A stretch of 64,000 nucleotides of DNA from an uncultured Draconibacterium sp. (GCA_964590675.1 CAZPWZ010000001.1:1024-65023), one strand, 5' to 3'; positions 12,093 to 62,537 are shown, counted from the first letter of the stretch. Made by a program: numbers and translations. The notes: generated from the sequence alone by a model not told the origin.

Positions 12093-12217
12093 GGAAAGAC
12101 CGATCGTATTGACCATCAAAGGCCAATTTAAAAAGACCATCTCAATTCATTGATTTTATAAGGTTGAAAAGGCCGGACTAAACCGGCAAAGGGTGGTCAA
12201 CTGGTCCGGCCCGTCCA
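12093..12217 (+). repeat. Dispersed intergenic TIR repeat, copy A (diverged)
   Basis: GGAAAGACCGATCGTATTGACCATC ... CCGGCAAAGGGTGGTCAACTGGTCCGGCCCGTCCA. Shares the termini and internal TTGACCA/GGTGGTCA blocks with copies C, D, F and I. Confidence 0.55.
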
Positions 12218-12241
12218 ACCTTGGCTTTGAATTCTGCGCTG

Positions 12242-12249
12242 TAATTTTG
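12242..12249 (+). promoter_or_regulatory. Candidate -7 box (TAATTTTG)
   Basis: TAnnTTTG match 25 bp right of repeat copy A and about 113 bp upstream of ATG 12362. Confidence 0.3.
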
Positions 12250-12316
12250 TCTTTTTTTCTCATCATGACAGTAAATTTCAGGGTTTGTTTGTAAACCTTA
12301 ACTAACTGTCCTACTT

Positions 12317-15185: not shown

Positions 15186-15321
15186 ATCCATGTCGGGATA
15201 AAATGCACGCGCTGACCTATCTTCACAATTGCAAACTGACCACCCAAAGACATTGATTGTTAACAGGATGGCATGGTCCACACTATCCGGCAGAGAGTGG
15301 TCAGGTGCACCGGCATATCCA
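15186..15321 (+). repeat. Dispersed intergenic TIR repeat, copy B (left end degenerate)
   Basis: CTGACCACCCAAAGACATTGATTGTTAACAGGATGGCATGGTCCACACTATCCGGCAGAGAGTGGTCAGGTGCACCGGCATATCCA is nearly collinear with copies C-left and D. Confidence 0.6.
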
Positions 15322-15437: not shown

Positions 15438-16553
15438 ATGAAAAATTCAATCAAATTATTCGGACTATTATTATTCCTTTTGACAGGAAATTTTGATGCG
15501 TCAGCTTGTACCGGCATTCGGCTGATAGCAAAAGATGGCGGGGTAGTTTATGCGAGAACCATGGAATGGGGAGCATTTGATTTACATTCCCGGGTAGCTT
15601 TAATCCCCGTTGGTTATACGTTTACAGGACTTACGCCTGATGGCAGTAACGGTAAGAAGTTTACGGTTAAACACGGTATAGCAGGGCTTGATATGCTTGG
15701 GAAAGATTATATTGCGGACGGCATGAACGAAAAAGGTTTGGCTGTAGGGTTATTTTATCACCCGGGATATGCAAAATATCCGGAATACAATAAAGCCAAC
15801 GCTGCAAATTGCATTTCGGCCCAGGATGTAACTACTTATATTTTATCTCAGTTTTCCAGCATCAATGAAGTAAAAGCAGGTATGAAGGAAATTACGGTTG
15901 TAGGTGTTGTTGAAAAAGCAATCGGAATTGTTGTTGATGCGCATTGGATGGTTACTGACAATTCAGGGACTTCAATTGTGATAGAATTTACCGGGGGAGA
16001 ATTAAGGATTCATGATGCACCGCTGGGTGTTATAACCAATGCCCCAAACTACGATTGGCATATGACCAATTTGAGCAATTATTTAAATCTTTCCATGTTT
16101 TCATTGGAACCCAGGACCTTGTCCGGAGTTAAGTTTGCTCCAACTGGCGCCGGGTCCGGAATGATCGGGCTTCCCGGCGACAATACACCCCCTTCACGAT
16201 TTGTCAGAGCGGTTACATGGACACAATCTGCAAGGAAAATTGAGAATGCAAAGGAAGGTATTTACGAAGCTTTTCGAATACTTGACAACTTCAATTTACC
16301 CTTAGGGCCTGACGGTGCAGAAGGTTCGGGAGCAGGACAAAATATGGATATCATGAGAAGCTCCACAATATGGACAACAGCATGGAACCTGACCGACATG
16401 ACTTTGAATTTCCACACCCAGCACAATAGAAGAGTAAGGAGTGTCAACATCAAAGAGATTGATTTTTCGAAAATCGGTAATGAAATTGTTCATATTGCAT
16501 TTGATGAGAAGAAAGAACAGGATATTTTAAATATAACACCTGACTTTAAATAG
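15438..16553 (+). CDS. Choloylglycine hydrolase / linear amide C-N hydrolase family (Ntn hydrolase)
   Basis: The signal peptide ends ...FDASA, followed immediately by CTGIRL (N-terminal nucleophile Cys). Size (371 aa) and overall pattern fit the bile-salt-hydrolase/penicillin-V-acylase family. Confidence 0.75.
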   Translation: MKNSIKLFGLLLFLLTGNFDASACTGIRLIAKDGGVVYARTMEWGAFDLHSRVALIPVGYTFTGLTPDGSNGKKFTVKHGIAGLDMLGKDYIADGMNEKGLAVGLFYHPGYAKYPEYNKANAANCISAQDVTTYILSQFSSINEVKAGMKEITVVGVVEKAIGIVVDAHWMVTDNSGTSIVIEFTGGELRIHDAPLGVITNAPNYDWHMTNLSNYLNLSMFSLEPRTLSGVKFAPTGAGSGMIGLPGDNTPPSRFVRAVTWTQSARKIENAKEGIYEAFRILDNFNLPLGPDGAEGSGAGQNMDIMRSSTIWTTAWNLTDMTLNFHTQHNRRVRSVNIKEIDFSKIGNEIVHIAFDEKKEQDILNITPDFK

Positions 16554-18505: not shown

Positions 18506-18746
18506 TGGATAGGCCGATTATTTTTACCATCTCTAGTCGATGCTAATCAAGCACCCCAAAGGCATTGATTGTTTACAGGATGGCTTGGTCACTAATTTCC
18601 GGCAGAGAGTGGTCAGATGTGGAAGAAACGTCTGCATAGACCAGCCCTCGCTGGAACGACTTGACCATCTCATTTTATTGATTGCTAATAGGATATGGTG
18701 GTCAATAAAAATCGGCAGAAGGTAGTCACTGACGCCGGCCTGTCCA
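18506..18746 (+). repeat. Dispersed intergenic TIR repeat, copy C (composite, about two units)
   Basis: Starts TGGATAGGCCGATTATTTTTACCATCTCT and ends GACGCCGGCCTGTCCA (inverted termini). The left half is collinear with copy D and the right half with copy I. Confidence 0.7.
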
Positions 18747-18786: not shown

Positions 18787-21513
18787 TCAAGTGCATCCAG
18801 CACCTTCACTCCGACTGCCTCCCGGGCAGAAATACTCAATTTTCTCAGGAGGAATAGTTTCGAAAATAAAAGGAAGTGAGAGCGAATTGTCAATCTGAAA
18901 TCTTCCGATACATTGGTAATTTGGCAAGGTAAGTACATTTTCCCTCGTGAGGTAAGGCGTAAAATAGGGCATGATATAATCAACATCATTAATGCCCGGT
19001 CTGAAAAAAATCGTACTCCCCACATTACCAAGGACGGATTGCTTCATGCTTTCATTCAACTGACCAAGGGTTTGGTTCGCCAAAACAAGACTGAGCCTGT
19101 ATTTTCTGGATTCCGACATGGCATACATTATCGATTGGGAAACAAAATTCTGAAATTCATCAACAAAGAGAACGAAATCTTTACGGTCATTTTCATGGAT
19201 ATTTTCGCGTGAAAAGGCAGCATTAATTATTCTTGATAATATGATTGTCCCTAAAATATTAACTCCGATTTTACCAATTTTACCTTTCGATAGTGATACA
19301 AGCAATATTTTATCATTATCAATAATATCTCTGAAGTCAATATTACTTTTTTTTGCAGCAAAAATAGGTCTGATATATTCGTTAATCAGTAATTGGTTAA
19401 GTTTACTGGTTATATATGGAGTGAAATTTGCAAGTGAAAAATCCCCGGAAAGATTAACAGCTGTTTCCCTCCAAAAATCAACCACCTCTTTGTCTTTGCA
19501 TTTTTGTAACAAACTGTTTCTGAACTCAGCATTCTGAAAAATACTGGTTATATCGCCAATGGTACCCAAATTACCGGGATCATCCATGAGAAGGAGTAAT
19601 GAGTTTTTCATAAACAACTCGAACATAGGTCCCATAGTCTGATTTACATCATATTCCTGTCGGAAAAAATTAAATAAATCATCTATCAGAAAACTCTTTT
19701 CCTGCGGATTTTCTTTATTATATTCGAGGAGGTTAATTCTGACAGTATCTGCTGTATTTCCCGGCTCAAAGCGGATGATATCTTTAATTCTATTCTCAGG
19801 TATGTTCTCTAATATAGTTTTATGAAGATCTCCGTGCGGATCGATAACGCAAACACCCTTACCTGCATAAATCCTGTCCATGATCATTGAATAAAGGACA
19901 GTGGTTTTTCCTGTTCCTGTTTGGCCAAGTAAGTAAAGATGCTTTCTCAGATCTTCCATGCTGATCTTTATCGGAATATCACCCTCGCCGATGTTTTTTA
20001 TGCCGGTTACAATACCTGTTTTGCTCAAATTTTCAGGCATATAGCCATATATAGAATTATATGATCGAATACCAGGCATTGTAGCCGAAAATGGGTAAGG
20101 GAATTTGAAAACATTTACAATATTGCTGAAAGAATACAAGCTGTTCAAGACATAACTTTGCTTGCCTTCATCCGGCTTTTTTAATATATCGTTCTGTACA
20201 ATGGCCACAGCCGTGGTATTGACAAGTGTAGCACTGGCAAAAAAAGCTGAAGAGATGGCCGATATCAGATTTTTACCAATGCTCTTTGATTCCTGAGCTC
20301 CGTATACTTCCAGGAAAAAACATTTTGAAGGTGATTGTAAATAGGAAGACAGGGTTTGATAAGCATTTTCTTTGTCGGTTCCGGTGAAATAATATAAGTT
20401 GATCGTGTTGATCAATTCTTTCAGATGGTCAATTTCAAGTCTTGTTAATTTTACAGGTTTAAGAACGAGTTCAACCATGGTTCTGTTTTTTTGTTGAAAC
20501 AGATTTTCGCAAAAATTATCCAGTTTGATCTCAGGTTTCAATGAGGAGGGAAGTACTACCTTTTTCTCTTCCCTTTTTGTAACATCTGCCGAAAAACCAA
20601 TACTATTTGTAGAAAACTGAGCATTTACTGCAAAGTCGGGAATAAATTGCAAAAAATTACTGGTATTGAAAGGAAACAAAACATTTTTCAGATCCTTTTC
20701 GTCTACTATAGGAGCAAAATAAAAAATTGTTTTCCCATATTCCTTTTTTGGTTGCATAAACAGATCAAACTCATTCTGTATTTCGTGAAACCGAACCATG
20801 GCCTGCCAGTACGATTCGGTTTCGAACTCAAGAACAAGAACAGTGTCAATATATTCATCACCCGGTTTATACAAATACCGTAGTCGTAAGGTGAGGCCCG
20901 ATTCATAATATGTCAATGCATTCAGGAAGTTTAAATGCCAATCGTATGCCAACTGGCATAGGTATTCGGTTTCATGTTTATTGCCAAATGAAGCACAAAC
21001 AACCGAAACCAGCCGGTACGCAAAATATCCCTTAACAGTATTTTCATTTCGTGTTGAAACATAAAAAAAAGGGATTACCGCATGCTGGTCGGTTACACTT
21101 TTTGTTAAGTTTAAAAGCTTTTTTCGTTGAACCGACTGTTGAATGGCTTTTTCAATCTGCAAAAATAGAAGATCACCATCCAGGTCGGATTTGGAATAAT
21201 AATCGTTGGCTCCCAACCGGATACATTCCGAGATTCTTTTATGATCATCCTTTTCGCCAGTCAGAATGATTACCGGAATGAAATCATCAAATTCCCTTAT
21301 TTTTAAAATCCCATCAACACCCTGCATTTTCCCTGCTGAAAATGATAACCCGAGTATAACCGCGTCAATGCTGTTGGAATACTCTTTAAGTTTTTCCAAC
21401 CCATCCTCAATACTTTCTGTGTTGGTAACATTAAAATTATATTGGGTTGCAGATTTTTCAATAGCTGGCTGCCATTTTGAAAATCTTTCGTCAATCATCA
21501 GTATATCACGCAT
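18787..21513 (-). CDS. Pseudo-receiver (REC-like) / large unknown middle region / FtsK-HerA-TraD-type P-loop NTPase
   Basis: The N-terminal CheY-like fold has T and K conserved (IILTGE, GANDYYSKS), but the phospho-acceptor position reads DAVILGLSF (Gly, not Asp). The C-terminal has Walker A GQTGTGKTT, VIDPHGDL, Walker B VLFVDEFQNF and ESRKYRLSLVLANQTLGQL. Confidence 0.6.
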   Translation of the reverse strand: MRDILMIDERFSKWQPAIEKSATQYNFNVTNTESIEDGLEKLKEYSNSIDAVILGLSFSAGKMQGVDGILKIREFDDFIPVIILTGEKDDHKRISECIRLGANDYYSKSDLDGDLLFLQIEKAIQQSVQRKKLLNLTKSVTDQHAVIPFFYVSTRNENTVKGYFAYRLVSVVCASFGNKHETEYLCQLAYDWHLNFLNALTYYESGLTLRLRYLYKPGDEYIDTVLVLEFETESYWQAMVRFHEIQNEFDLFMQPKKEYGKTIFYFAPIVDEKDLKNVLFPFNTSNFLQFIPDFAVNAQFSTNSIGFSADVTKREEKKVVLPSSLKPEIKLDNFCENLFQQKNRTMVELVLKPVKLTRLEIDHLKELINTINLYYFTGTDKENAYQTLSSYLQSPSKCFFLEVYGAQESKSIGKNLISAISSAFFASATLVNTTAVAIVQNDILKKPDEGKQSYVLNSLYSFSNIVNVFKFPYPFSATMPGIRSYNSIYGYMPENLSKTGIVTGIKNIGEGDIPIKISMEDLRKHLYLLGQTGTGKTTVLYSMIMDRIYAGKGVCVIDPHGDLHKTILENIPENRIKDIIRFEPGNTADTVRINLLEYNKENPQEKSFLIDDLFNFFRQEYDVNQTMGPMFELFMKNSLLLLMDDPGNLGTIGDITSIFQNAEFRNSLLQKCKDKEVVDFWRETAVNLSGDFSLANFTPYITSKLNQLLINEYIRPIFAAKKSNIDFRDIIDNDKILLVSLSKGKIGKIGVNILGTIILSRIINAAFSRENIHENDRKDFVLFVDEFQNFVSQSIMYAMSESRKYRLSLVLANQTLGQLNESMKQSVLGNVGSTIFFRPGINDVDYIMPYFTPYLTRENVLTLPNYQCIGRFQIDNSLSLPFIFETIPPEKIEYFCPGGSRSEGAGCT

Positions 21514-49019: not shown

Positions 49020-49146
49020 TGGATACGCCAATGATCTTTACGATCTCTGGCCAATGCAAATTGATCACCCCTATCCATTGATTAATAAAAGGTTGAAGTA
49101 GTCCGTTAAAATCGGCGAAGGGTAGTTAATGTGACCGGCTTGTCCA
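49020..49146 (+). repeat. Dispersed intergenic TIR repeat, copy F
   Basis: TGGATACGCCAATGATCTTTACGATCTCTGGCC ... AATCGGCGAAGGGTAGTTAATGTGACCGGCTTGTCCA. Confidence 0.65.
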
Positions 49147-49179
49147 TTGGATCAATTATTCAACCGGATCGTTGAAGGT

Positions 49180-51813: not shown

Positions 51814-51890
51814 AAGTTATTTATTCTCAATCTGTAAAGATACATCAAACAGGGTGCTAATCCTATTAAAAAGCACAATTTGTTTTCCAA

Positions 51891-52013
51891 TGGACAGGCC
51901 ACTCATCCTGACCACATCGCGCCGGTTTAGGCTGACCCATTTAACCAGCTAACATTCAATTTACAAGGATGATCATTTTTTACTGGCCAGGGCTAAGGCC
52001 ATCGGCCTGCACA
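51891..52013 (+). repeat. Dispersed intergenic TIR repeat, copy G (subfamily 2)
   Basis: Collinear with copy E, with four substitutions and one short indel block by eye. Confidence 0.8.
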
Positions 52014-52322
52014 CAGGATCCCTATTGCAGACAGTTTCTTTTTCATTATTCCCGGATGGAAGCCAAAGGTATAGAAATTTCAATAGTTACAGGAATGTAG
52101 AATTTGTAATAGCATCTCAGAGAGGATCAACGCAAATTCCATAAATTTGCCCTATGCCGTTCCCCATACCCAAATACAACATTGAAACCGAAGAGCACGT
52201 GGAAACAACCACAGTAACTCCAGCCGTCAAGTTCGATGACAAACTGAAGAATGAAATTCTAAGCCAGATTCATGAAGAAAAAGCCGTGAAACTGAAAAAC
52301 AAAACTATAATTCTCTAATCTC

Positions 52323-52958
52323 ATGAAAGTAATCGCAATAAACGGAAGTCCGAGAAAAGAAGGAAACACCTACCATGCCCTAAAAATGATCGGTGATGAA
52401 CTTCTTTCAAATGGTATTGAGTTCGAGATTTTGCATGTCGGACATAAACTGATTCATGGATGTATCGCATGTGGTAAATGTGCAGAAACCAGAGATGAAA
52501 AATGCAGCCTTGGAGCAGATGGTCTAAATCAATGGATACAAATAGTTAAAGCTGCTGATGGTATTATCATTGGCTCTCCTGTCCATTATTCAGGTATTGG
52601 CGGCACTATGAAATGTTTTTTAGACAGGTTATTCTATGTTTCAGGATCAAATGGGAACCTCTTACGGCACAAAGTTGGAGCAGCAGTGGTTGCTGTGAGA
52701 AGAACTGGTGGGTCGGCTACCTTAGATCATTTGTACCACTATCTTACCTACGCCGAAATGGTTGTTGCTACCGCCAACTATTGGAATGTCATTCATGGCA
52801 GAAGTGCTGGAGAAGTATCCCAAGATGGTGAAGGTGTGCAGATTATGCATGTTTTGGGCAAGAACATGGCTTGGCTATTGAAAATGAAAGAAGCAACTTC
52901 AGGTACTATTCAACCGCCAATAACTGAAAAGAAGGTTATTACCAATTTTATCAGATAA
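52323..52958 (+). CDS. Flavodoxin-fold NAD(P)H-dependent FMN reductase / iron-sulfur flavoprotein family
   Basis: MKVIAINGSPRKEGNT start, CIACGKC motif, GSPVHYSG. Confidence 0.75.
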   Translation: MKVIAINGSPRKEGNTYHALKMIGDELLSNGIEFEILHVGHKLIHGCIACGKCAETRDEKCSLGADGLNQWIQIVKAADGIIIGSPVHYSGIGGTMKCFLDRLFYVSGSNGNLLRHKVGAAVVAVRRTGGSATLDHLYHYLTYAEMVVATANYWNVIHGRSAGEVSQDGEGVQIMHVLGKNMAWLLKMKEATSGTIQPPITEKKVITNFIR

Positions 52959-53187
52959 TTCAGGATATTAATAGTTCAATATACGATTATATGAAAACCA
53001 AGATGTTGTAAATATCCATAATTCAACATTATACTTCAAAACCTTTATTGAACAAGTTTCTGAGTTGGTATCAGAGAAGTCACAGGTGGACGTATTCTAA
53101 AAGACATCTGGAATAACCGATCTTTTCATTGCAACTACAACCCGATTAACTTCTCATTTGCTCATATATCTGTCGTGGGCTCAGCGT

Positions 53188-53769
53188 CTATTTGTTATCA
53201 TGTTCAACCCAAATCAGGGCTGATGTGATAAATCCCAACTTTTTAGCAATGGCGATGTAGTTCTGCTTTATATCTTCAGGTATTGTAGTCTCACGTGATA
53301 GTATCCACAGATAGCTCAATTTATTGCCGCAAACAAGGGCATACTTGTAATCATTGTCGATGGCAATCACGTTATACCCTCCATAAAACGGACGAAAAAA
53401 TGACACCTTCAGCATGGCAACATCCGATCCTCCAACAAATTTTGCGATTCCAGTGGCTTCCTCCCATTTCATTTTCTCATAATTATATCCCCGGTTAAGG
53501 ACTTTTATGGTGCCATCATCGTTGATGGAATATTGAGCTGTGGTGTTATTTAAATTTCGCTCAAATCTAAAATCGAAGCGGGCAATCTCATACCACCTGC
53601 CCAGATATTTCTCCTTGTTAAATGGCTTTATTGCAACCACTCCCTCTGGAATAGTGGAACATGAACCGAATAGAATACCGAGAATTCCCATAACCGAGTT
53701 TCTTATAAATGTTTTTAAGTTCATATCTTTTCTATTCAATAAGCTCACTATAATACAATTCCGCGTCAA
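53188..53769 (-). CDS. blc: Bacterial lipocalin (Blc-like outer-membrane lipoprotein); probable start ATG 53724
   Basis: Lipobox LFGSCS. Lipocalin signature YLGRWYEIARF. About 178 aa from the internal ATG. Confidence 0.8.
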   Translation of the reverse strand: MTRNCIIVSLLNRKDMNLKTFIRNSVMGILGILFGSCSTIPEGVVAIKPFNKEKYLGRWYEIARFDFRFERNLNNTTAQYSINDDGTIKVLNRGYNYEKMKWEEATGIAKFVGGSDVAMLKVSFFRPFYGGYNVIAIDNDYKYALVCGNKLSYLWILSRETTIPEDIKQNYIAIAKKLGFITSALIWVEHDNK

Positions 53770-53778
53770 TTACCTGAC

Positions 53779-54150
53779 CTAATCAGATTTGGATTTCTGT
53801 AAAAATATACTTACAACCAGCCCCGCCGTCACAACCACATCAACAATAATCCAAACCTGCCTGCCCAGAGGAATTGATGCAAGGGGCTGGAACAGGACCA
53901 TCAATCCAATAAACACAATGACCACCGGAATGTTCTTCCTTTCATATTCGTAATATGCGAGGATGCCAAACCCGACAACGGCGACAAACCTGACCAGCTG
54001 GTAATAGCCAAAAGGCATTTGGAAAAGGCATACTAAGAGCAGGGTAGCAAGGACAATTTTTATCAGGTTTTCGGTGGTGGGTTTCATTTTTACAGTGGGA
54101 TTTAATCCCCGGGGGAAATCATTACCCTGCAAATTAATAAATCTTTCCAC
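53779..54150 (-). CDS. Small integral membrane protein (probable start ATG 54087)
   Basis: Three to four hydrophobic helices from MKPTTENLIKIVLATLLLVCLF. Confidence 0.5.
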   Translation of the reverse strand: MERFINLQGNDFPRGLNPTVKMKPTTENLIKIVLATLLLVCLFQMPFGYYQLVRFVAVVGFGILAYYEYERKNIPVVIVFIGLMVLFQPLASIPLGRQVWIIVDVVVTAGLVVSIFLQKSKSD

Positions 54151-54183
54151 ATAAATAGATTTTCAAAGCAACTTTTCCGTTTT

Positions 54184-54238
54184 TGGACATGCCGGACACT
54201 TTGACCAGTCTTCGCACGAGCACGCTGACCGCCTCTCC
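54184..54238 (+). repeat. Dispersed intergenic TIR repeat, copy H (left half only)
   Basis: TGGACATGCCGGACACTTTGACCAGTCTTCGCACGAGCACGCTGACCGCCTCTCC differs from the left half of copy I at 3 of 55 positions. Confidence 0.7.
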
Positions 54239-54432
54239 TCAAGTAATTCTTTATTTGTTTTTTTCTAAACAAAATGTTTTTATAATTATTTTTACAGGTA
54301 AAAGCATTTACCCAAACCATGTCCGGCGTGCAGTAAATGGCTACCAGCTTATTCTGACATAAATTATCCGACAGAAAAAATGTCAACATTCAACTCGTTG
54401 ACCATTTATTGTCAAACTAAAGACTGAATCAT

Positions 54433-55503
54433 ATGAAAAAATTCATCTTTATTCAAACAGTTTTGATGTTTTATTTGATTTTCCCGGTATTTAGCCAGAG
54501 CGATACCATTGTCCATCCGCTGGACGCGGTCGATACATTAAACCAGGACTTCGGCCTTTTTACAAAGGACGAAATACTGAATCTCACCCTACGGTTCGAT
54601 ATTACACATTATACGAGAAAAAAACCAAAGGATGAATATCTGAAAGCCATATTGACCTATCACATTAGCAAAGAAGACTCAATAAATAAGGAGATACGAC
54701 TTAAGTCACGGGGAGAAATGCGCAACGGGTATTGTGATTTCCCGCCTATCAGGTTGAATTTCAGGAAAACTGAATTCCCGAAGGCCGCCGACCTGAGAAA
54801 GATAGAAAAACTTAAACTGGTTACTCATTGCGAAGAGGGGAATACAGATTATCTGTTTAAAGAATACCTGATCTACAAATTATTTAACGTTCTCACCGAT
54901 TCAAGCTTCCGGGTAAGATTAGTGAGAATCGAATACATCAACACGTATAAAAAAAGCGACCCTGTATATGCATATGGTTTCTTTATTGAACCTGTGGAGA
55001 TTCTTGCTGAACGGATCAACTGCGTTCCGGTAACTTCATTATATTTATCACAGAAAAATATTTTCCCCCGAATCATGGACAGGATGGCGATTTTCAATTA
55101 TATGATAGGAAACACCGACTGGTCAGTTCCCAACCAGCATAATTGCAAAGTATTGTCATCACTTGATTTCAATAATTCTGCACTTGGAATAGCAGTACCA
55201 TATGACTTTGATTATTCGGGCCTGGTGGATGCAGATTATGCCGTTCCTTATGAACCTCTTGGCTTGACATCGGTTCGTGAACGGCGTTATTTAGGGATGT
55301 GCAGGACAGAAGATGTATTTATGAACGCAATTAAGGAATTTTCCGGTAAAAAAGATGCGTTCTATAAGGTGATCAATGATTTTCAATTGCTAAGCGAAAA
55401 AGAGAAATCAACCATGATCAGATACCTGGATAGTTTTTATGCTGATTTTGATGACCGTAACAGTATAGTTAAAACCCTTCTCGATGAATGCAAGAGTTTC
55501 TGA
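54433..55503 (+). CDS. Secreted hypothetical protein
   Basis: Signal peptide MKKFIFIQTVLMFYLIFPVFSQ. No family recognised by eye. Confidence 0.55.
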   Translation: MKKFIFIQTVLMFYLIFPVFSQSDTIVHPLDAVDTLNQDFGLFTKDEILNLTLRFDITHYTRKKPKDEYLKAILTYHISKEDSINKEIRLKSRGEMRNGYCDFPPIRLNFRKTEFPKAADLRKIEKLKLVTHCEEGNTDYLFKEYLIYKLFNVLTDSSFRVRLVRIEYINTYKKSDPVYAYGFFIEPVEILAERINCVPVTSLYLSQKNIFPRIMDRMAIFNYMIGNTDWSVPNQHNCKVLSSLDFNNSALGIAVPYDFDYSGLVDADYAVPYEPLGLTSVRERRYLGMCRTEDVFMNAIKEFSGKKDAFYKVINDFQLLSEKEKSTMIRYLDSFYADFDDRNSIVKTLLDECKSF

Positions 55504-55522
55504 CAAATAAAACCAAAACATT

Positions 55523-56236
55523 ATGACGACGCAAACAATTATCACCCCGGATGCATTCTTAATTGAGTCCCTGGCGCGGTTAGCGATCAATATTGCGGTA
55601 TTATTCATAATTATCAGTCTGATATACGGCAGGTACATGGATAAAAAGGGGAATCCCTTTGCTTTTTTCCTGATGGGAATTATGATTTTTTTGCTGTGTA
55701 TTGTGCTTAAAGACGTGGAAATGAAGTTGGGAATGGTTTTGGGACTTTTTGCCGTTTTCTCCATTATCCGCTATCGGACAAAAAATTTGGCAATACGGGA
55801 TATGGCATACCTGTTCACCGTGATTGGCATCTCAGCAATTAATGCATTGCTGGATTATCCAAGACCTGTGAGAGGGACGATAATCGTTAATTCAATCGTA
55901 ATTTTAACCATCTATTTACTGGAAATCTCTTTCGGAACAAAGGGCAAAGAGAATTCCGGCAAAGTTGAGATGCATAAGAAACCTGAGGAAAAGCAAGAAA
56001 ATGAACCTGGGGATGACCCTCTGATGAGCAAGCATGATCTTTTGTACGATAAGATTGAATTACTCAATCCTGACAAATTGAACGACTTGATTGCGGATAT
56101 TTCCGTCAGAACGGGAATTAAGGTTGAGAAAATCCGGATCCGTAAAATAAATTTAGTGGACGGTAATGCAGAGCTTGATTTGTTTTGCAAGGCGCAACAT
56201 CAGGAACCTGAAACCCGGCTGAGTATGGATCTCTGA
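55523..56236 (+). CDS. DUF4956-like membrane protein
   Basis: Four TM helices with GLFAVFSIIRYRTKNLAIRDMAYLF, a pattern I associate with DUF4956. Acidic soluble C-terminus. Confidence 0.55.
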   Translation: MTTQTIITPDAFLIESLARLAINIAVLFIIISLIYGRYMDKKGNPFAFFLMGIMIFLLCIVLKDVEMKLGMVLGLFAVFSIIRYRTKNLAIRDMAYLFTVIGISAINALLDYPRPVRGTIIVNSIVILTIYLLEISFGTKGKENSGKVEMHKKPEEKQENEPGDDPLMSKHDLLYDKIELLNPDKLNDLIADISVRTGIKVEKIRIRKINLVDGNAELDLFCKAQHQEPETRLSMDL

Positions 56237-56250
56237 TTTTAGCAATATCA

Positions 56251-57369
56251 ATGAATATCAGAAATTGTCGCAGGAATATGAAAAAATCAATACTGTTTCT
56301 GTTAATTTGTCTTTATAATTTCAGTTTACCTGCAGTATCTAAGGACAGGTCGGTTGATAAACCGATCAATGATGGTCCTTACGTTTTTTATATAAATGAT
56401 ACGCTTAAAGCCAGAATGATTGAAAATAATGTATTGAGAGAATACATTATTTCTTCCGGGAATTTCTCAGAGATTAAAAAAGTCATTCATTTATCATGTA
56501 GTTATAACGACCTGCTTGACGTTTATTCACAAAAGGCAGATTATAGTCAAACCTTCAGTGAAGTTGATAGTGTTTTCGCTATCAGTGATGTTCATGGCCA
56601 ATATGTGAGTTTTATTAATTTATTAATTATCAACGGAATAATAGATAAAAACCTCAATTGGAACTTCGGGAAGGGACATCTTGTATTTCTTGGCGACGCT
56701 TTCGACAGAGGGGATATGGTTACAGAATTACTCTGGATTCTTTTCAATTTGGAAAAGCAAGCTGTAAAGGCAGGCGGCATGGTTCACGTACTGTTAGGGA
56801 ACCACGAGAACATGGTGCTCAGCGGCGATCTGAACTACATTAACGAAAAATATAAAAAAACTGAAGAATTAACCGGTACCAAATACACTGACCTGTACTC
56901 TGAAAATTCCGTACTGGGAAAATGGTTACGCCTGCAACCCGTTATGATTTCTATTAACGATATCCTGTTTGTTCATGCCGGTATTTCAATTGATTTGGTA
57001 AAAATGAAACTGACTGTGAAGCAAGTCAACAATTTATATTCAAACAAAATTATAGGGAAAGAAATTGCTCCGGGTTACGAAAATATAAAGGTGACATTGC
57101 TCAGTGGAAAAAATGGGCCTTTGTGGTATAGAGGATACTTCGAGGATTCAACTTTCAGTGAAAGCAGATCAGATTCCATTCTCAGGTTTTATAACAAGAA
57201 ACATATAATAGTCGGACATACCACTTTTAAAACAATTAAAAGTCTGTACGGCAATAAAATCATTGGAATAGATGCCGGAATAGGTTACAAACAGCCTGGC
57301 GAAGTACTTATTTATAAAAACAAAGATTTCTATATAGGCACAGCCAGGGGTGAAAGAATAAAGCTGTGA
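56251..57369 (+). CDS. Secreted calcineurin-like metallophosphoesterase (probable start ATG 56278)
   Basis: Signal peptide MKKSILFLLICLYNFSLPAVS. ISDVHGQY, GDAFDRGD, GNHE. Confidence 0.75.
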   Translation: MNIRNCRRNMKKSILFLLICLYNFSLPAVSKDRSVDKPINDGPYVFYINDTLKARMIENNVLREYIISSGNFSEIKKVIHLSCSYNDLLDVYSQKADYSQTFSEVDSVFAISDVHGQYVSFINLLIINGIIDKNLNWNFGKGHLVFLGDAFDRGDMVTELLWILFNLEKQAVKAGGMVHVLLGNHENMVLSGDLNYINEKYKKTEELTGTKYTDLYSENSVLGKWLRLQPVMISINDILFVHAGISIDLVKMKLTVKQVNNLYSNKIIGKEIAPGYENIKVTLLSGKNGPLWYRGYFEDSTFSESRSDSILRFYNKKHIIVGHTTFKTIKSLYGNKIIGIDAGIGYKQPGEVLIYKNKDFYIGTARGERIKL

Positions 57370-59105
57370 ATAGTGAAACTAAAGGTACTTCCTTTTCCTT
57401 CTTCACTTTCAACCCAAAATTTACCGCCATGTTTTTCGACAAAGTCTTTACAAATCATCAAACCCAGGCCTGAGCTTGCTTCATTATTTGTGCCTTTGCG
57501 GCTGGTGTTCACATCTATTCGGAACAAACTTCTGATCATTGCCTGACTCATTCCTATTCCAGTATCTGAAATGGAAACTTTAACAGACGAGTCGGGCATC
57601 GACTCCGCCATAACAGAGACATGCCCGTTTTCATTCGTGAATTTTATAGCATTGGAAATCAAATTCCGAAGAATGGAATCAAGCATGGTTTTGTCGGCAA
57701 TTACTTGTATACCGGCAGGAATGTCATCGCTGATTCCAATTTTTTTCTTGTTCGCCGTTTCCGCAAGTACTCCGATTGTATCCATTATTTCCTGCCTCAA
57801 TGATAAGCACTCTGGATTGAAACTGATCAGATTCCGCTGCATCAATGACCATTCCAGTAAATTCTCAAGCAGACTGTACAAGTCAAGGGTCGATTTTCTC
57901 ATGCTTCGCACCATCTTTTGAACCTCATTCCGGGTTAGTGTTGGTAATTCTTCATCCAGCAATTGAGTAAAGCCCAGCAATGAAGTAAAAGGACTCCGCA
58001 AATCGTGGGCAATTATGGATAACAACCTGTCTTTTTCAGCATTTGCACTAAAAAGTTGTTCATTTTTGCGTTTGATTTCCTGTTCAGCCAGCTTGCGGTC
58101 AGTGATATCTCTTGTCACACTTATTATGCTGGTATTCCCATTAAGGTTAATGATGCGGGCCGACATCAGCCCTGTGAACGTGCTGCCATCCTTTCTCTGA
58201 AATTCCGCCTCAAAGTTATCGGAAAATCCATTTTCTTTCAGTAGCGTAATGATACGGTCCCGATCTGCGGAATCATGCCAAATATTTGTGCCCAGACTGG
58301 ATTTGCCAATTATTTCTTCTTTTGAGTAGCCCGACATCGCTAAAAAGGTTGAATTGCACTCGTAGATATCACCATCGGAAAGACTCGTGATCGCTACTGC
58401 ATCCGGACTCGTATTGAAGATCGAAATGAATCGTTCACTGGACTCAGACTTTTCTGCATTCAACCTTTGGTTGACCATGACCAGAAAACCGAAAGTCCAT
58501 GCCAGTCCTACGATCAATGCGTCAAAATATGCAAGAAGACTTACCGGGGTGCTCCGGAAAACCTCTTCCATGGGTGAACCTGCAAGAATCAAAAAGGCAC
58601 GAACAGCGAAGATCGCCCCATGAACAAGAAAAATGAAGGCGATGAACCTTGTGGTGACCCTGATAGACTTTATCTGGTTTTGAAATAATACAAAAGAAGC
58701 AAGGAATCCTGTAAAACTGAGCGTAATGCTTATAATGAAAGAACGAATTACAATGTCATCCTTTATAAAGAGGAAAACAAGAAGAAGAATTAAAAAAACG
58801 GAGAAAGAGCCGAGGATCAGCTTTCGGTTTTCCTGTTTTCCGAAAAATCTCATCACCCCAATGTAAACACAGTAGGTTCCGCCTACAATGAAAATGTTCT
58901 GGAATATGATAACAAGCGGGAGTATGAAAGTGAAATCCCTAAGGAAGAGCATTGTAAAACCCAGGATCTCCAGGCCGCACCATAAAAGCCACCATCCGAT
59001 TCCCTGATAGACTTTCACAACCCGGTACAGGTGGTAGAATATGATAAACTGCGTCAGGTGAATGAGTGCGATGATTATGCTAACCGTTTTAAGATCGATT
59101 CCCAT
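57330..59105 (-). CDS. Membrane sensor histidine kinase (multi-TM N-terminus, PAS, HisKA, HATPase_c)
   Basis: About six TM helices, PAS region, H-box AHDLRSPFTSLLG, NLISNAIKFT, DTGIGM, GLGLMICK. Confidence 0.85.
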   Translation of the reverse strand: MGIDLKTVSIIIALIHLTQFIIFYHLYRVVKVYQGIGWWLLWCGLEILGFTMLFLRDFTFILPLVIIFQNIFIVGGTYCVYIGVMRFFGKQENRKLILGSFSVFLILLLVFLFIKDDIVIRSFIISITLSFTGFLASFVLFQNQIKSIRVTTRFIAFIFLVHGAIFAVRAFLILAGSPMEEVFRSTPVSLLAYFDALIVGLAWTFGFLVMVNQRLNAEKSESSERFISIFNTSPDAVAITSLSDGDIYECNSTFLAMSGYSKEEIIGKSSLGTNIWHDSADRDRIITLLKENGFSDNFEAEFQRKDGSTFTGLMSARIINLNGNTSIISVTRDITDRKLAEQEIKRKNEQLFSANAEKDRLLSIIAHDLRSPFTSLLGFTQLLDEELPTLTRNEVQKMVRSMRKSTLDLYSLLENLLEWSLMQRNLISFNPECLSLRQEIMDTIGVLAETANKKKIGISDDIPAGIQVIADKTMLDSILRNLISNAIKFTNENGHVSVMAESMPDSSVKVSISDTGIGMSQAMIRSLFRIDVNTSRKGTNNEASSGLGLMICKDFVEKHGGKFWVESEEGKGSTFSFTIHSFILSPLAVPI

Positions 59106-59185
59106 ATAAAGAGTATACTGCGTTTATTAAGTTATTCCATCATATTGGAAAAATCGGAGCTCGATGAAGCCAATTGTAAATCCTT

Positions 59186-62100
59186 CTAATCCTGGACACA
59201 CCGAATTCCGTCGCCGCAAGTTTTTTCGAACTGGAACTGGTAGAAATCCGCGCTCTGGTAGTTCAAGTTGCGGTAATAGGCATCATACGATCCGGTTTGC
59301 GTGGCGGTCCAGAACTGGCAACTGGTGAAGATGGCGTGAAACGCATTGTCGACCCAGCGGTATCCGTTCGGGAGTGCCGTGAACCCTGACGAATTCGTCG
59401 CGCCGGTATTCGGGGGCGCCCAGTGGGCTAAGCCTGCCTCTTTCATTTGCCCGCCGATCCCGGAGCCCCCGATCGAGCCGCTCAGCGTGGAAAATTCGGG
59501 ATCCTTCGGCACATGCCATCCCGGTGGACAGATCCCCTGGATGTTCCCGGTTGGCGTCGGGCTCCATGAGGTTGTGTTGCTAGCCCCGTTGATGTACTGA
59601 ACGGCCTCACCCCACTGGTACATGCCCCCGTAAACATCGCAGTTGGCGTCGAGGTTGTCGTAACAGTACTTCTCGGCGATCCCGTTGTTCGTTTGTTCGT
59701 TCACACCGGCGATCTTCGTGCCATAGTTGAGATTTTCGGCCATCCAGCACTGGCTGCCGATCATCAGCGCCGAGTACGACTGTCCGTCCCTCGGATCCGT
59801 AAATATACTGCAATCCTTGGTATGGATGGTGATCTCGTTACCGTAGCAGGTGCCGACGGCATTGGTGGCATAGGCCCTGACGAAATAAACCATGTTCATG
59901 GCCAGCCCGGTCATCAAACTGGTATAGGCGCCTGTGCCTGATCCGTTCAGGGTGATGTTGTTCGCGGTGGTCGGGTTCGGGTTGACACTCCAGCATACGC
60001 CGCGTATGGTCACCGACGATCCTCCGTCACCGGTGATGGTGCCGCCGGAGGTGGCCGTGTAGAAAGAGATGTTTGTTGCGGCCGTTGTCGAAAGGATGAT
60101 GATTCCGTTCTGTGTGGTAAAGCTCAGCTCGTTTCCGTACCAGGTGCCGATGGCATTGGTGGCATAGGCCCTCAGGTAATATGTTGCCGAGGGATTAAGA
60201 CCGGTCAGGCTGCTGGTAAAGGATCCTGTGCTGCTTCCATTGGTGGTTTTAAAGTCATTGACGGTCGGGCCCGGAGTCAGGCTCCAGCACACTCCCCTGG
60301 CTGTGATGGTGGAACCTCCGTCGCCGGAGATCGTTCCGCCGGAGGTGGCCGTCTGGGCCATGACGGCAGTTGCCGCGGTGGTGGTGAGGTTTGCCACGCC
60401 GCTTTGGGTGGTTAAAACGAGTTCATTCCCGTACCATGTCCCCGTCCCGTTGGTGGCATAGGCCCTCAGGTAGTAAACAGTCGATGGATTGAGTCCTGTA
60501 AGGCTGCTGGTGAAGGACCCGGTGCCGCTCCCGTTGACGGTCTTGAAATCACTGACCGTGGGCCCGGTTGTGGTGCTCCAGCACACTCCCCTGGCTGTGA
60601 TGGCCGACCCCCCGTCGCTGGTGATGCTCCCGCCCGAAGATGCGGTCTGGGCCATGAGGGAGGTGACGGCGGTAGTCGTTACGGTGGCAACTCCGCTCTG
60701 CGTCGTGAATGAAAGTTCGTTGCCGTAGTATGTGTCCGTTGCGTTCGTTGCATAGGCCCTTACGAAATAAGTGCCCGATGCCGACAGTGCGGTGAGGCTG
60801 CTGCTGAAGGAACCGGTCCCGCTCCCGTTGGTGCTTTTAAAATCATTGATGGTGGGTCCCGGCGAGGTATTCCAGCATACCCCCCTCGCGGTAACGGGCG
60901 CCCCGCCGTCGCTGCTGATATAACCGCCACTCATTGCACTCTGGGCCTGGATGGAAGTCACGCTGTTGGTGGTGATGGTGACCGACCCCGACAGGGTGGT
61001 AAATGTAATCTCGTTGCCATAGGCCGTTCCCTGGGCATTGGTGGCATAAGCCCTTGCGTAATAGCCGGTCGATTGCGTCAGCGTACTGAGGGTGACACTG
61101 AAACTGCCCGGCCCGTTGCCCGAAGATGCCTTGTTGTTGGCCAGTGTGGGGTTTGGAATGGTATTCCAGCATACGCCCCGTTCGGTGACCGGGGAGCCGC
61201 CGTCACTGCAAATGAAACCGCCGGATACTGCCGAAAGTGCGAGGATGGAGGTGGCCGCGTTGGTGATGACCAGGGGCAGCTGCGCGCCACCCCACACCGG
61301 GATCCCGTTGTTCAGGGTCAGTACCTGTCCATTGCTGCCCACCGGCACGATGACCCAGCTTATCCCGTTCCAGTAGAGCATATCTCCCGGGTTGCTGCCA
61401 TCGGGGATGATCACCGGCACCCACCGGGTGCCTTTCCAGCAGTAATAACCGGGGATGACCTGGTTGGGGGGAGTTCCGGCATTGGCCGTGTTGTAAACAA
61501 AGAGTCCGGTGGCGGGTGAAGTAACCGGGCCGGGATCGGTGACCGACAACAGTGCGACACGCGGAGGTAAAAATCCCCTGGCGGATGACGAAACATCCAG
61601 TGCCGCCGATGGATCGGCAATGGGAGAGCCAATCACCACCTGTCCCGCCGGATAAGATATACCCCACGGATTGCTGGTCCAGGGACTCGATACTTTGCTG
61701 TTGAACGCATTCCAGTCGGAGGCGGTAAGGTACCCGCCGGTAAGAGCGGAAGCGGCAGGCAGGGAGCCGGAAAGCGTGTTGTTCGCGAAGGTGATGACAA
61801 GTGGCGAAGCGGCGTCGACTGTAATGATACGACTTCCGAAGGCCATATTCCAGTTCAGCATGTCCGAAGTGGTGATGCTTGCCGAGGGGTGAGCCAGAAA
61901 TACCGGGTCGGTCTCGGTGAAACTGTTCTCGTTGAATTTTTTCCATGCCGTCCCGTCGAACCAATAAAGTGAATTGACGTCGGTGTTGTAAACGATCAGT
62001 CCGTTCGGCGGGGTGATAACCGAATTCATCTGCCCGGTGGTCATCCTCGGTGGCAGAAACCCCCGCGTGACAGACTTTACATCGAGCATGGCCGCCGGAT

Positions 62101-62293
62101 GGGGGTCAGACTGGTCATGGTTGATGCCCACCTGCGCGTGCGTCATTTTTACCAGCGAAAGGCAGAGGAACAGGAGGAGGATATTTCTGATCATGGGGCA
62201 GGATGCAACCTTGAGCTGCTTAAACACAATATCGGGTTTACCAAAAGCTGTATTATCATTCATTCTCTTATTTATGGCATTTTCAGTGTTCAT
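59186..62293 (-). CDS. Large secreted protein with five ~98-aa tandem domains and a C-terminal Fibrobacter-succinogenes-major-paralogous (FISUMP, TIGR02145-like) domain; probable start ATG 62194
   Basis: Signal peptide MIRNILLLFLCLSLVKMTHAQ. Five repeats of the consensus pattern SGG.I.SDGG..(V/I)TARGVCW....P.PT....(T/S).NGSGTGSF.S.LT.L....TY(Y/F).RAYATN..GT.YGNE..FTT. C-terminal DPRDGQSYSALMIGSQCWMAENLNY...CPPGWHVP. Confidence 0.75.
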   Translation of the reverse strand: MNTENAINKRMNDNTAFGKPDIVFKQLKVASCPMIRNILLLFLCLSLVKMTHAQVGINHDQSDPHPAAMLDVKSVTRGFLPPRMTTGQMNSVITPPNGLIVYNTDVNSLYWFDGTAWKKFNENSFTETDPVFLAHPSASITTSDMLNWNMAFGSRIITVDAASPLVITFANNTLSGSLPAASALTGGYLTASDWNAFNSKVSSPWTSNPWGISYPAGQVVIGSPIADPSAALDVSSSARGFLPPRVALLSVTDPGPVTSPATGLFVYNTANAGTPPNQVIPGYYCWKGTRWVPVIIPDGSNPGDMLYWNGISWVIVPVGSNGQVLTLNNGIPVWGGAQLPLVITNAATSILALSAVSGGFICSDGGSPVTERGVCWNTIPNPTLANNKASSGNGPGSFSVTLSTLTQSTGYYARAYATNAQGTAYGNEITFTTLSGSVTITTNSVTSIQAQSAMSGGYISSDGGAPVTARGVCWNTSPGPTINDFKSTNGSGTGSFSSSLTALSASGTYFVRAYATNATDTYYGNELSFTTQSGVATVTTTAVTSLMAQTASSGGSITSDGGSAITARGVCWSTTTGPTVSDFKTVNGSGTGSFTSSLTGLNPSTVYYLRAYATNGTGTWYGNELVLTTQSGVANLTTTAATAVMAQTATSGGTISGDGGSTITARGVCWSLTPGPTVNDFKTTNGSSTGSFTSSLTGLNPSATYYLRAYATNAIGTWYGNELSFTTQNGIIILSTTAATNISFYTATSGGTITGDGGSSVTIRGVCWSVNPNPTTANNITLNGSGTGAYTSLMTGLAMNMVYFVRAYATNAVGTCYGNEITIHTKDCSIFTDPRDGQSYSALMIGSQCWMAENLNYGTKIAGVNEQTNNGIAEKYCYDNLDANCDVYGGMYQWGEAVQYINGASNTTSWSPTPTGNIQGICPPGWHVPKDPEFSTLSGSIGGSGIGGQMKEAGLAHWAPPNTGATNSSGFTALPNGYRWVDNAFHAIFTSCQFWTATQTGSYDAYYRNLNYQSADFYQFQFEKTCGDGIRCVQD

Positions 62294-62410
62294 AATAATC
62301 CAAGAATGGTCTGTCTTCTGTTAAGAGGAGTGCAGGGGTAAATTTACGAGTTTTTAAATACTGACAATCGTAAAATTTCACTCAAAATGAAAAGAGAAAT
62401 GCACACACAC

Positions 62411-62537
62411 TGGACATGCCGGACACTTTGACCAGTCTTCGCCGGAGCACTCTGACCGCCTCTCCTTGTTGATTGTCAAGAAGATATGGTGGTCAGCAAA
62501 AATCGGCAGAGGGTGGTCAAGACCTCCGGCTTTTCCA
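62411..62537 (+). repeat. Dispersed intergenic TIR repeat, copy I
   Basis: TGGACATGCCGGACACTTTGACCAG ... GATATGGTGGTCAGCAAAAATCGGCAGAGGGTGGTCAAGACCTCCGGCTTTTCCA. The termini form imperfect inverted repeats of about 25 bp (TGGAnAnGCCGGA...TTGACCA). Confidence 0.75.

Follow-up and report, generated by a model that had tools for sequence, protein, structure and literature searches.

Intergenic 127-bp repeats in an uncultured Bacteroidales bacterium are very probably miniature derivatives of an IS21-family insertion sequence

Copies of the repeat in the window

The DNA analyzed here, referred to as the window, is a stretch of 64,000 nt from an uncultured Bacteroidales bacterium. Searching it with nhmmer revealed 11 copies of one repeat family of about 127 bp, distributed over nine sites. 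Full copies are 123–128 nt long and were detected with E values of 1e-22 to 5e-35; the incomplete copies D0 and H gave about 1e-8 and 5e-7. Summed, the copies account for 18% of the intergenic DNA of the window. With the strand of each copy given relative to the family consensus, eight lie on the plus and three on the minus strand:

Copy A: 12092–12217, plus strand, full length (E = 1.2e-25, model positions 2–127), left terminus degenerate (AGGAAAG...)
Copy B: 15194–15321, plus strand, full length (E = 1e-22), left terminus degenerate
Copy C1: 18506–18619, plus strand, right terminus (last ~14 nt) missing (E = 1.1e-16, model positions 1–112)
Copy C2: 18620–18746, plus strand, complete 127-nt copy, TGGAAGAAACG...CCGGCCTGTCCA, directly adjoining the truncated C1 (E = 6.8e-28, model positions 1–127)
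Copy D0: 38560–38658, minus strand, degenerate, model positions 1–24 missing (E = 1.2e-8, model positions 25–127), head-to-head with D at a 12-nt gap
Copy D: 38671–38798, plus strand, full length (E = 7e-25)
Copy E: 43698–43824, minus strand, full length, inverted relative to the consensus (E = 9e-26)
Copy F: 49020–49146, plus strand, full length (E = 3.5e-25)
Copy G: 51891–52013, minus strand, inverted, with a 4-nt internal deletion (E = 8e-23)
Copy H: 54184–54240, plus strand, solo left half (E = 4.7e-7, model positions 1–57)
Copy I: 62411–62537, plus strand, best-preserved copy (E = 5e-35)

All copies listed in the initial annotation were recovered at its coordinates or within a few bases of them. 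Copy B had been placed about 8 nt too far to the left, at 15186, and D0 was absent from that list. The double unit described at C indeed consists of two copies, more exactly of a right-truncated and a full one that abut. The similarity also holds under proper statistics, as judged from the nhmmer E values and from a degenerate 30-nt pattern, which matched four times compared with 0.00 matches expected from 100 shuffles.

All nine sites are intergenic (P ~5e-10) and four or five of them, depending on one small ORF, lie between divergent gene starts. Copy A is flanked by divergent genes for a LytS-type kinase (minus strand) and a DUF5694 protein (plus strand), copy B by divergent genes for a Cache/SBP protein (minus strand) and a choloylglycine hydrolase (plus strand), and copy D by a Metallophos gene at the end of the cas operon (minus strand) and an MBL-fold gene (plus strand). 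C1 starts 1 nt after the stop codon of a 253-aa ORF, E sits between convergent genes and both genes flanking F are on the minus strand. The copies themselves contain no ORF of functional size and no Pfam or IstA/IstB remnants. In agreement with the initial annotation, we detected no transposase in the window, either by Pfam in 40 of the 44 gene-sized ORFs (all but four of the cas operon), which also yielded no integrase, or by tblastn with IstA and IstB over the whole window.

Two subfamilies had been proposed before, one of them represented by the nearly identical copies E and G. Their near identity was reproduced (~95%), but both belong to the same family as the other copies and are merely inverted, aligning better as reverse complements. 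Pairwise scores of E against A, B and F were 85, 64 and 90 in reversed and 56, 34 and 46 in forward orientation, and flipping E, G and D0 raised the number of invariant alignment columns from 3 to 14. Since these three copies align better when reversed, the repeats constitute one family present in both orientations. Copy H corresponds to the left half of I with three mismatches in 56 nt (95% identity), just as annotated. In both pairs, E/G and H/I, the 95% identity extends precisely as far as the element and not into the flanking sequences, which are unrelated. Copies C1 and D are 87% identical over 114 nt. Mean pairwise identity of the window copies is about 62%, with core mutations and truncations visible. 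We infer that most copies are old and decaying and that E/G and H/I reflect more recent duplications.

Architecture of the element

The consensus termini TGGACAGGCCG...CGGCCTGTCCA form an 11/11 inverted repeat, and the two arms as a whole mirror each other. A TG start and a CA end are found in D, E, F, G and I and also in C2 (TGGAAG...TGTCCA); in A and B only the CA end is retained. Each end carries two direct copies of a putative transposase-binding unit, GCCGG-N6-TTGACCA. On the left, the hexamer cores occupy positions 19 and 43, on the right 80 and 104, corresponding to a 24-bp period. TGACCA/TGGTCA occurs at a density of 13.8 per kb within the elements as against 0.88 per kb in the remaining sequence. 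The blocks reported earlier as shared between copies (TTGACCA, GGTGGTCA, CCGGCAGAG) represent transposase-binding units repeated in the way characteristic of IS21-family ends. In copy I the cores at 19, 80 and 104 are exact and the one at 43 has one mismatch; in copy F all four cores are mutated. Most window copies, having at least one mutated core each, are probably no longer mobilizable.

Across 23 copies from many metagenome-assembled genomes (MAGs), conservation amounts to 1.2–1.6 bits per position in termini, hexamer cores and CCGG blocks and to 0.5–0.9 in spacers. A 12-nt center, ATTGATTGTTAA, is conserved at 1.35 bits per position; it resembles the subterminal sequence of a full-length insertion sequence (IS) in contig L037 and is only loosely explained thereby. 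The 127-nt length, the internal junction and the center are common to all copies across many MAGs, which argues for one amplified lineage and against independent in situ decay of full-length IS.

An imperfect palindrome of this size could also, when transcribed, act as a stable hairpin in a small RNA, an attenuator or a terminator. Copy I folds into a 127-nt hairpin with a minimum free energy of -62.5 kcal/mol (z = -6.2), and 78% of the alignment cells at its positions are paired. For the remaining nine copies, however, folding was not superior to that of shuffled sequences (z between +0.6 and -2.3), and RNAalifold on 26 copies returned only three pairs (-1.4 kcal/mol) and no compensatory change. 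Shuffling the partners among the sequences changed the pairing only from 78.1% to 76.9%; it reflects the conserved inverted-repeat columns, and no hairpin is conserved beyond them. Rfam searches were negative both for the entire window at the gathering threshold and for the region of copy I (62350–62600) at E<=1. In the part scanned for terminators, 43001–63000, none of copies E to I is overlapped by a prediction, and the hairpin of copy I lacks a following T-run. Occurrence in both orientations, the sites between divergent gene starts and the 24-bp periodic direct repeats in each arm, for which there is no RNA rationale, likewise speak against an RNA function, which we consider very unlikely.

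Full-length relatives encoding IstA and IstB

Both ends of the repeat were found at full-length IS loci in Bacteroidota MAGs (contigs L051, L007/L028, L045 and L037), where matches to model positions 1–55 and 77–127 lie 2.6–2.7 kb apart in correct orientation; L035 and L048 carry copies identical to the IS of L045. Only two genes are located between the matched ends. The first encodes an IS21 family transposase (IstA; NCBIfam transpos_IS21, 219–247 bits, cut-off 160 bits), the second the IS21-like helper ATPase IstB (NCBIfam IS21_help_AAA, 264 bits, cut-off 200 bits; Pfam IstB_IS21, E = 7e-71). These loci had been chosen by the right-end pattern only, so that the left-end match across istAB (E ~2e-6 to 1e-5) represents independent evidence. 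Over the terminal 50 nt, repeat copies and IS termini show 60–80% identity (z = 5–14 versus shuffles), with 72–80% for copy I against the IS ends in L051 and L007. Even the nearest full-length IS ends are only 60–80% identical to the window copies and not near-identical. The full IS copies also have TG...CA termini and contain 2–5 binding units per end. The istA and istB genes with matching ends lie in other genomes and not in the window.

The terminal inverted repeats (TIRs) of IS21 are made up of direct repeats, L1/L2 and R1/R2, spaced by about 23 bp (PMC10122671). Biochemistry and cryo-EM show that the IstA tetramer needs two complete repeats per end and the terminal CA, which bears the reactive 3'-OH, for synapsis and integration (PMC10122671). 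The window elements likewise have two direct-repeat units per end at a spacing of about 23–24 bp and share the 5'-TG...CA-3' termini common to the IS21 family (IS21, IS5376, IS408 and others), whose members encode the DDE transposase IstA and the AAA+ helper IstB. They differ in being 127 bp long and devoid of istA and istB, so that they cannot move by themselves, and in having exactly 2+2 units where the full-length relatives have 2–5 per end.

Taken together, we regard it as very probable that the repeats are miniature non-autonomous derivatives (transposable elements of the miniature inverted-repeat type, MITEs) of an IS21-family insertion sequence. This upholds the MITE interpretation of the initial annotation: the copies are short, have no coding capacity, occur dispersed and exclusively between genes, possess TG...CA inverted termini and are homologous at both ends to IstA- and IstB-encoding elements. 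Further support comes from the duplications limited to the element itself in E/G and H/I, from the two orientations, from short-read assemblies breaking inside copies and from the distribution over MAGs. From the sequence comparison, an internal deletion would have removed istA and istB from a parent of about 2.6 kb, leaving some 57 nt of one end fused to some 70 nt of the other. Since two repeats per end and the terminal CA are the minimum required by IstA in the published IS21 biochemistry, the resulting 127-bp element looks like a minimal IstA substrate. As the window contains no transposase, mobilization would have to occur in trans, with IstA and the IstB helper ATPase provided by a cognate full-length IS at another location in the cell to place copies at new sites. 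The insertions that persist would be those in intergenic DNA.

The alternative label, REP-like, was not supported. REP/BIME palindromes are spread by RAYT transposases (IS200/IS605-like Y1) and, like the window copies, are intergenic palindromic repeats of high density. They differ in unit size, internal organization and termini: a 127-nt unit with internal 24-bp direct repeats is set against palindromes of 20–40 nt, and the TG...CA ends are those of DDE-transposase elements; both share homology with the termini of IS that encode IstA and IstB. The scan of 40 of the 44 window ORFs turned up no Y1/RAYT gene. An origin by RAYT is thus extremely unlikely. ERIC elements are imperfect palindromes of about 127 bp, intergenic and present in both orientations, and of the same size class; they belong to another phylum and have no sequence relationship to the window family, for which an IS parent family can be named.

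Comparison with known MITEs and distribution

The repeats, which have proliferated in the intergenic DNA of an uncultured Bacteroidales bacterium, are selfish DNA of an ordinary kind with an unusual parent family; as MITEs they form a new family within a known kind. Known bacterial MITEs, such as Correia/NEMIS of Neisseria, RUP of Streptococcus pneumoniae and MITEAba12 as well as BrickBuilt, MITE239 and MITE464 of Porphyromonas gingivalis, are likewise short, non-coding, multi-copy, intergenic and equipped with IS-related TIRs, and like the window family they are presumably mobilized in trans. BrickBuilt, which also has a Bacteroidota host, has been reported to be strictly intergenic (PMC10969869). 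Whereas these MITEs have a single short TIR, the window family has compound ends with two binding units each and no detectable target-site duplication (TSD). Its parent also sets it apart from the MITEs covered in a 2024 review of prokaryotic MITEs, in which IS21 is never mentioned. Our full-text search of the open-access literature, where absence is no proof, found no paper on an IS21-derived MITE.

Beyond the window, further copies are widespread: dozens of Bacteroidales/Bacteroidota MAGs contain the family. Elsewhere it is scarce, with one match in 981 kb of unselected related contigs. No copy was found in 53 kb of close relatives.

Insertion sites and rearrangements

IS21-family elements normally generate TSDs of 4–8 bp. 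None is detectable for the window elements, in line with the initial annotation: the junctions of 23 copies showed no direct-repeat excess for k = 3–8 at boundary shifts of -6 to +6. TSDs are absent for E, G and I, including the young pair E/G, and equally at the full-length IS of L045 and L037, where both junctions are readable. A duplication length of 5 bp is given in PMC10122671. Among relatives with 85–94% identical flanking proteins we found no empty orthologous site, the gene neighborhoods being different.

Such differing neighborhoods recall integron gene cassettes separated by attC sites. Hydrolase and FMN reductase genes flanking the copies behave like movable cassettes in relatives, and the repeats resemble attC in size (cf. 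the 123–126-bp Vibrio cholerae repeats) and imperfect dyad symmetry. Yet they lack RYYYAAC/GTTRRRY core sites, their ends being TGGAC...GTCCA, and occur in both orientations at distances of 2–20 kb between genes on both strands, with no integrase among the ORFs scanned. Homology to IS21-family ends accounts for the sequence fully, and the probability of attC-like sites is practically negligible.

A derivative of IS21 could also have been domesticated, being kept for a host function as a protein-binding or bending site in promoters or as a recombination hotspot for gene blocks. The 12-nt center is as conserved as the transposase-binding cores, the length is fixed over many MAGs, and homology to relatives (L142 and L143) starts exactly at the boundary of copy G at 52013, a synteny breakpoint. 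Flanking genes occur in wholly different neighborhoods in relatives, pairs of adjoining or truncated copies are found repeatedly (C1/C2, D0/D and a further case in L033) and TSDs are absent. Conservation in blocks is however expected from sampling active master copies, the window copies are decaying, and neither their position nor their orientation with respect to genes is uniform. Only one synteny breakpoint, that at G, coincides with a copy; at B the homology boundary with relatives is 57 nt away. We consider domestication quite improbable.

The MITE interpretation can be extended to a naturally minimized IS21 substrate with exactly two IstA sites in each end, whose 12-nt center could bend the DNA sharply to synapse ends only about 30 bp apart, and which would have spread over many Bacteroidales lineages and would also serve as a rearrangement hotspot shuffling gene blocks without target duplications. 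This is suggested by the missing TSDs, the synteny break at G, the pairs C1/C2 and D0/D, and the unrelated contexts of flanking genes in close relatives; we judge it unlikely. If true, the 127-bp family would amount to more than degenerating junk.

Assemblies of short reads from the same population are interrupted within E, G and I, with contig L059 terminating within E and contigs L056 and L057 beginning within G. Copy B is also contained in L001 and L002, short-read contigs that are independent of each other.

Intergenic copies of the repeat family

Automatic repeat detection recovered the repeat family described in the initial annotation as repeats D5, D6, D8 and D11, and the sequences at the coordinates assigned to its copies align. 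A profile HMM built from the copies matched every full copy (E=1e-22 to 6e-32), and there was nothing comparable in the rest of the window. With a second HMM, whose source copies come mostly from other genomes, the eight full-length copies were matched at E=8e-23 to 5e-35 and the right-truncated copy C1 at 1e-16. A degenerate 30-nt pattern of the right arm gave 4 matches, compared with 0.00 expected from 100 dinucleotide shuffles.

Copies E and G, which had been assigned to a second subfamily, turned out to be inverted copies of the same family, as is the degenerate copy D0. E aligns to A, B and F with scores of 85, 64 and 90 when these are reverse-complemented, but only 56, 34 and 46 in forward orientation, and once E, G and D0 are flipped, 14 alignment columns instead of 3 are invariant, the central ATTGA among them. 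The double unit described as copy C does comprise two copies (+), although only the second of them is complete.

Repeat copies added or redefined in the window
18506-18619: C1, last ~14 nt missing
18620-18746: C2, complete 127-nt copy, directly abutting C1
38560-38658: D0, new degenerate copy, inverted like E and G
H: solo left half, positions 1-57 of the HMM

Altogether the window holds 11 copies at 9 sites. All nine sites are intergenic, which has a probability of about 5e-10 if insertions are retained at random, given a pre-insertion intergenic fraction of 9.3%; family copies make up 18% of the intergenic DNA of the window. Within the pairs E/G and H/I the identity of 95% is confined precisely to the element, with unrelated sequence on either side, the pattern expected from copying of the element itself.

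Architecture of the 127-nt element

Each arm of the element contains two direct copies of the unit GCCGG-N6-TTGACCA. The hexamer cores lie at positions 19 and 43 in the left arm and, in the form TGGTCA, at 80 and 104 in the right, with a period of 24 bp, and the element begins with TG and ends with CA. Terminal inverted repeats of the IS21 family have been reported to be built from direct repeats (L1/L2 and R1/R2) with a spacing of about 23 bp, and two complete repeats per end are needed for integration by the transposase IstA (PMC10122671). In the IstA tetramer R1 is bound by the catalytic and R2 by the structural subunits, and the 3'-OH is supplied by the terminal CA (PMC10122671). The architecture of the element matches these published ends, so the miniature element has kept exactly the minimal cis requirements. 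Full-length IS relatives carry 2-5 binding units per end.

Conservation over 23 non-redundant copies from many MAGs is block-wise, with 1.2-1.6 bits per position in the termini, cores and CCGG blocks and 0.5-0.9 bits in the spacers. Positions 51-57, the least conserved stretch, are the probable deletion junction. Since the length of 127 nt and the centre are common to all copies, we consider the family to be one amplified deletion derivative rather than the decayed remains of many separate full IS insertions. Just inside its innermost repeat, a full-length IS (L037) has a subterminal sequence (ATGATTGTTCA...GGGGTGGTCA) similar to the 12-nt centre of the element (ATTGATTGTTAA); the centre may be an inherited subterminal site. 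We also compared copies I and D and the family consensus by eye with the IHF consensus WATCAANNNNTTR, which none of them fits.

Full-length IS21 elements with the same ends

Searching one genome per GTDB species with the 30-nt pattern yielded 53 stretches, all but two from Bacteroidota MAGs. Freshwater and sediment Bacteroidales predominate among the hosts; Prolixibacteraceae, Draconibacterium, Porphyromonadaceae, Cytophagaceae, Chitinophagaceae, Amoebophilaceae and Flavobacteriales were also found. The HMM separates two classes of loci: those of the first carry the complete 127-nt element, frequently as several copies within one 8-kb locus, while in the second a left-end match (model positions 1-55) lies 2.6-2.7 kb from a right-end match (positions 77-127). 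Two genes are located between these separated ends. The first encodes a protein of 514-527 aa with an N-terminal HTH, an rve-type core and a Mu-transposase C-terminal domain, assigned by NCBIfam equivalog models to the IS21 family transposases (219-247 bits, cut-off 160). The second encodes an IstB_IS21 ATPase of 250-300 aa (Pfam E=7e-71), likewise assigned as IS21-like helper ATPase IstB (264 bits, cut-off 200). Because the loci were selected by the right-arm pattern, the left-arm match beyond istAB is an independent confirmation. Three IS copies from one MAG (L035, L045 and L048), 99.7-100% identical, fix the outer boundary at ...GGTTTTTCCA. IS ends, for example TGGATATGCCGGTGAAACTGACCATACCGTGCCGGAGCAAACTGACCACC... 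and ...GGTGGTCACGTTAAACCGGCAGAGGGTGGTCAATATCACCGGCACGTCCA, form a single sequence family with both arms of the 127-nt element, the terminal 50 nt being 60-80% identical (z=5-14 versus shuffles).

Judged by end sequence and architecture the 127-nt family is an IS21-family derivative and itself no IS. As first annotated, the window lacks a transposase: Pfam identified no transposase or integrase in the 40 gene-sized ORFs scanned out of 44, the other four belonging to the cas operon, and tblastn of IstA and IstB against the whole window gave nothing better than E=0.3. Homology to IS21 ends, architecture, copy number, orientation and distribution are direct observations. We infer that IstA and IstB acting in trans moved the copies and that the majority of those in the window have become inactive fossils; their mean pairwise identity is 62% and most carry at least one mutated core.

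Some IS loci deviate from the common layout. In the MAG Loclat_bin-05662, IS ends close to contig edges carry two occurrences of the right-end pattern at a distance of 72 nt (L018 2834-2935, L038 21-122, L053 5578-5679), suggesting IS21-family ends with extra tandem binding units. In L045 units in both orientations surround an internal palindrome near the istA-side end (6616-6737). An unselected metagenome locus (L060 14187-16316) contains a distant IS21-family istA/istB pair with ~25-31% identity to the proteins of the loci L028 and L051; no ends related to the MITE family were detected around it.

RNA structure and other repeat classes

A structured RNA or terminator could also account for palindromic intergenic repeats, and copy I does fold exceptionally (z=-6.2), but it is alone in this, the other copies ranging from +0.6 to -2.3, and RNAalifold found no conserved hairpin. 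When the hairpin of copy I was projected onto 26 copies, 78.1% of cells were paired compared with 76.9% with shuffled partners. Pairing is thus no better than column composition predicts, and the symmetry of the element arises because the inverted-repeat columns are conserved. Clear both-sided changes are present at the termini (AAAAA/TTTTT versus CAGGC/GCCTG) and would be expected if both ends co-evolve with one transposase. Rfam gave no matches for the whole window at gathering thresholds or for copy I at E<=1, and no terminator-like sites overlap copies E to I, the stretch scanned. The promoter scan used the sigma-70 consensus, which is uninformative for Bacteroidota.

REP/BIME elements, part of the original MITE/REP-like description, and integron attC sites both differ from the family in how the unit is built, in end sequence and in orientation, and no cognate enzyme was identified among the 40 ORFs scanned. 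The case for a host-domesticated role of the element is circumstantial.

Insertion sites

No target-site duplication had been seen in the initial annotation, and none was detected by eye, by statistic or with shifted boundaries (k 3 to 8, shifts -6 to +6). Duplications are absent also in young copies and in two full IS copies with both junctions readable. Simple erosion fails to explain this, because a duplication of 5 bp should remain visible as a clear excess when element identities are 60-70%.

No empty site was recovered among the fetched loci, where the same insertions merely recurred as identical duplicates. The metagenome scan with a hybrid kinase returned paralogues of at most 62% identity and without synteny, hence no orthologous locus, and relatives found through the FMN reductase and the hydrolase gave no filled/empty pair, their proteins being 85-94% identical and their neighbourhoods unrelated. 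The lack of an empty site is explained by gene order around the flanking genes, which is unconserved even in relatives with ~90% identical proteins. Nucleotide homology to relatives (L142-L151) ends ~20-60 nt beyond the choloylglycine-hydrolase gene (15438-16553) and no more than ~1 kb past the FMN-reductase gene (52323-52958), and the neighbours of both genes mostly differ. In two of the relatives, L150 and L151, the hydrolase lies within long same-strand runs of small ORFs, resembling cassettes.

Nucleotide homology to the relatives L142 (3103) and L143 (1531) starts at 52013, precisely the outer edge of G, and the sequence upstream is unrelated in the relatives, so a synteny breakpoint coincides with a repeat copy. 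Intact copies also repeatedly adjoin truncated ones (C1/C2, D0/D and L033). Together these observations hint at rearrangement at the copies, and we conjecture that recombination or transposition-associated rearrangement would remove paired duplications. At copy B the homology boundary lies 57 nt from the element.

Distribution and assembly breakage

The family is lineage-restricted and strongly expanded in the window. The 64-kb window carries 11 copies, compared with 1 match in 981 kb of unselected related metagenome contigs, a background sample taken from the hybrid kinase scan. Relatives with an 85-91% identical FMN reductase contain one insertion in ~100 kb (three matches represent the same locus), and those with an 88-94% identical hydrolase have 0 matches in 53 kb.

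Exact-protein look-ups with the genes flanking B, E, G and I returned the same population only, as short Logan contigs (SRR13723394, SRR13723396, SRR13723397). Four of six such contigs (L056-L059) stop inside or at E, G or I (window positions 43758, 51922/51939 and 62413). Multi-copy repeats usually break short-read assemblies in this way, and the breaks suggest near-identical copies elsewhere in the genome. The family thereby fragments short-read assemblies of this population, and recognising it aids the binning and annotation of Bacteroidales MAGs from freshwater and sediment and keeps its palindromes from being taken for regulatory RNAs or terminators.

Relation to known MITEs

The 127-nt family works like a bacterial MITE and has the defining features of one apart from two that depend on comparative data: no target-site duplication was found and, for presence/absence polymorphism, no empty site was recovered. 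If confirmed in complete genomes, the missing duplications would inform how copies insert or later rearrange. IS21 is absent from a 2024 review of prokaryotic MITEs, and a full-text search of the open-access literature found no description of an IS21-derived MITE; the 127-nt family may be among the few recorded MITEs to derive from this two-protein IS family. By keeping exactly the minimum of two repeats per end determined for IstA in vitro, the natural element lets the biochemical result be checked against evolution, and its 127 bp can serve directly as a test substrate. It is a neat natural counterpart to this two-repeat rule, though unsurprising in principle.

Gene context in the window

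The window comes from an uncultured member of the Bacteroidota, most probably of the Bacteroidales. Its genes include T9SS-sorted secreted enzymes, a C10 peptidase, many two-component sensors and a HepT/MNT toxin-antitoxin pair. A CRISPR array adjoins a type III-B-like cas operon, which also holds a Cas2-like gene, Cas6 and RAMP proteins.

CRISPR array and cas operon
21788-24179: CRISPR array, 35 repeats (GTTTCAGCAGTCCTTGGACGGAATCCTTTGATAAG), spacers of 31-39 nt
24640-38290, minus strand: cas operon, type III-B-like
24918-27203: RT-Cas1 fusion in the cas operon
31676-33238: Cas10/Cmr2 in the cas operon
34905-37358: CorA-like membrane protein in the cas operon
37355-38290: Metallophos phosphoesterase in the cas operon

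One or two degenerate repeats lie upstream of the array, and one spacer is tandemly duplicated (23209-23239 = 23275-23305). Comparison of the spacers with the IS, the MITEs and all loci gave only chance matches of 16-17 nt.

The HepT-like RNase and MNT nucleotidyltransferase pair (62570-63206, minus strand) immediately adjoins copy I, and a similar pair is found near the hydrolase gene in the relative L150 (5642-6191). A 1035-aa protein with a Fib_succ_major C-terminal domain (59186-62293, minus strand) contains five tandem repeats of 294 nt (98 aa), and the stretch holding it has 59% G+C compared with ~40% in the rest of the window. Adjoining C1/C2, a 908-aa protein (18787-21513, minus strand) joins an N-terminal response-regulator receiver to a TrwB/HerA/TraG-like coupling-protein ATPase, which is an unusual fusion.
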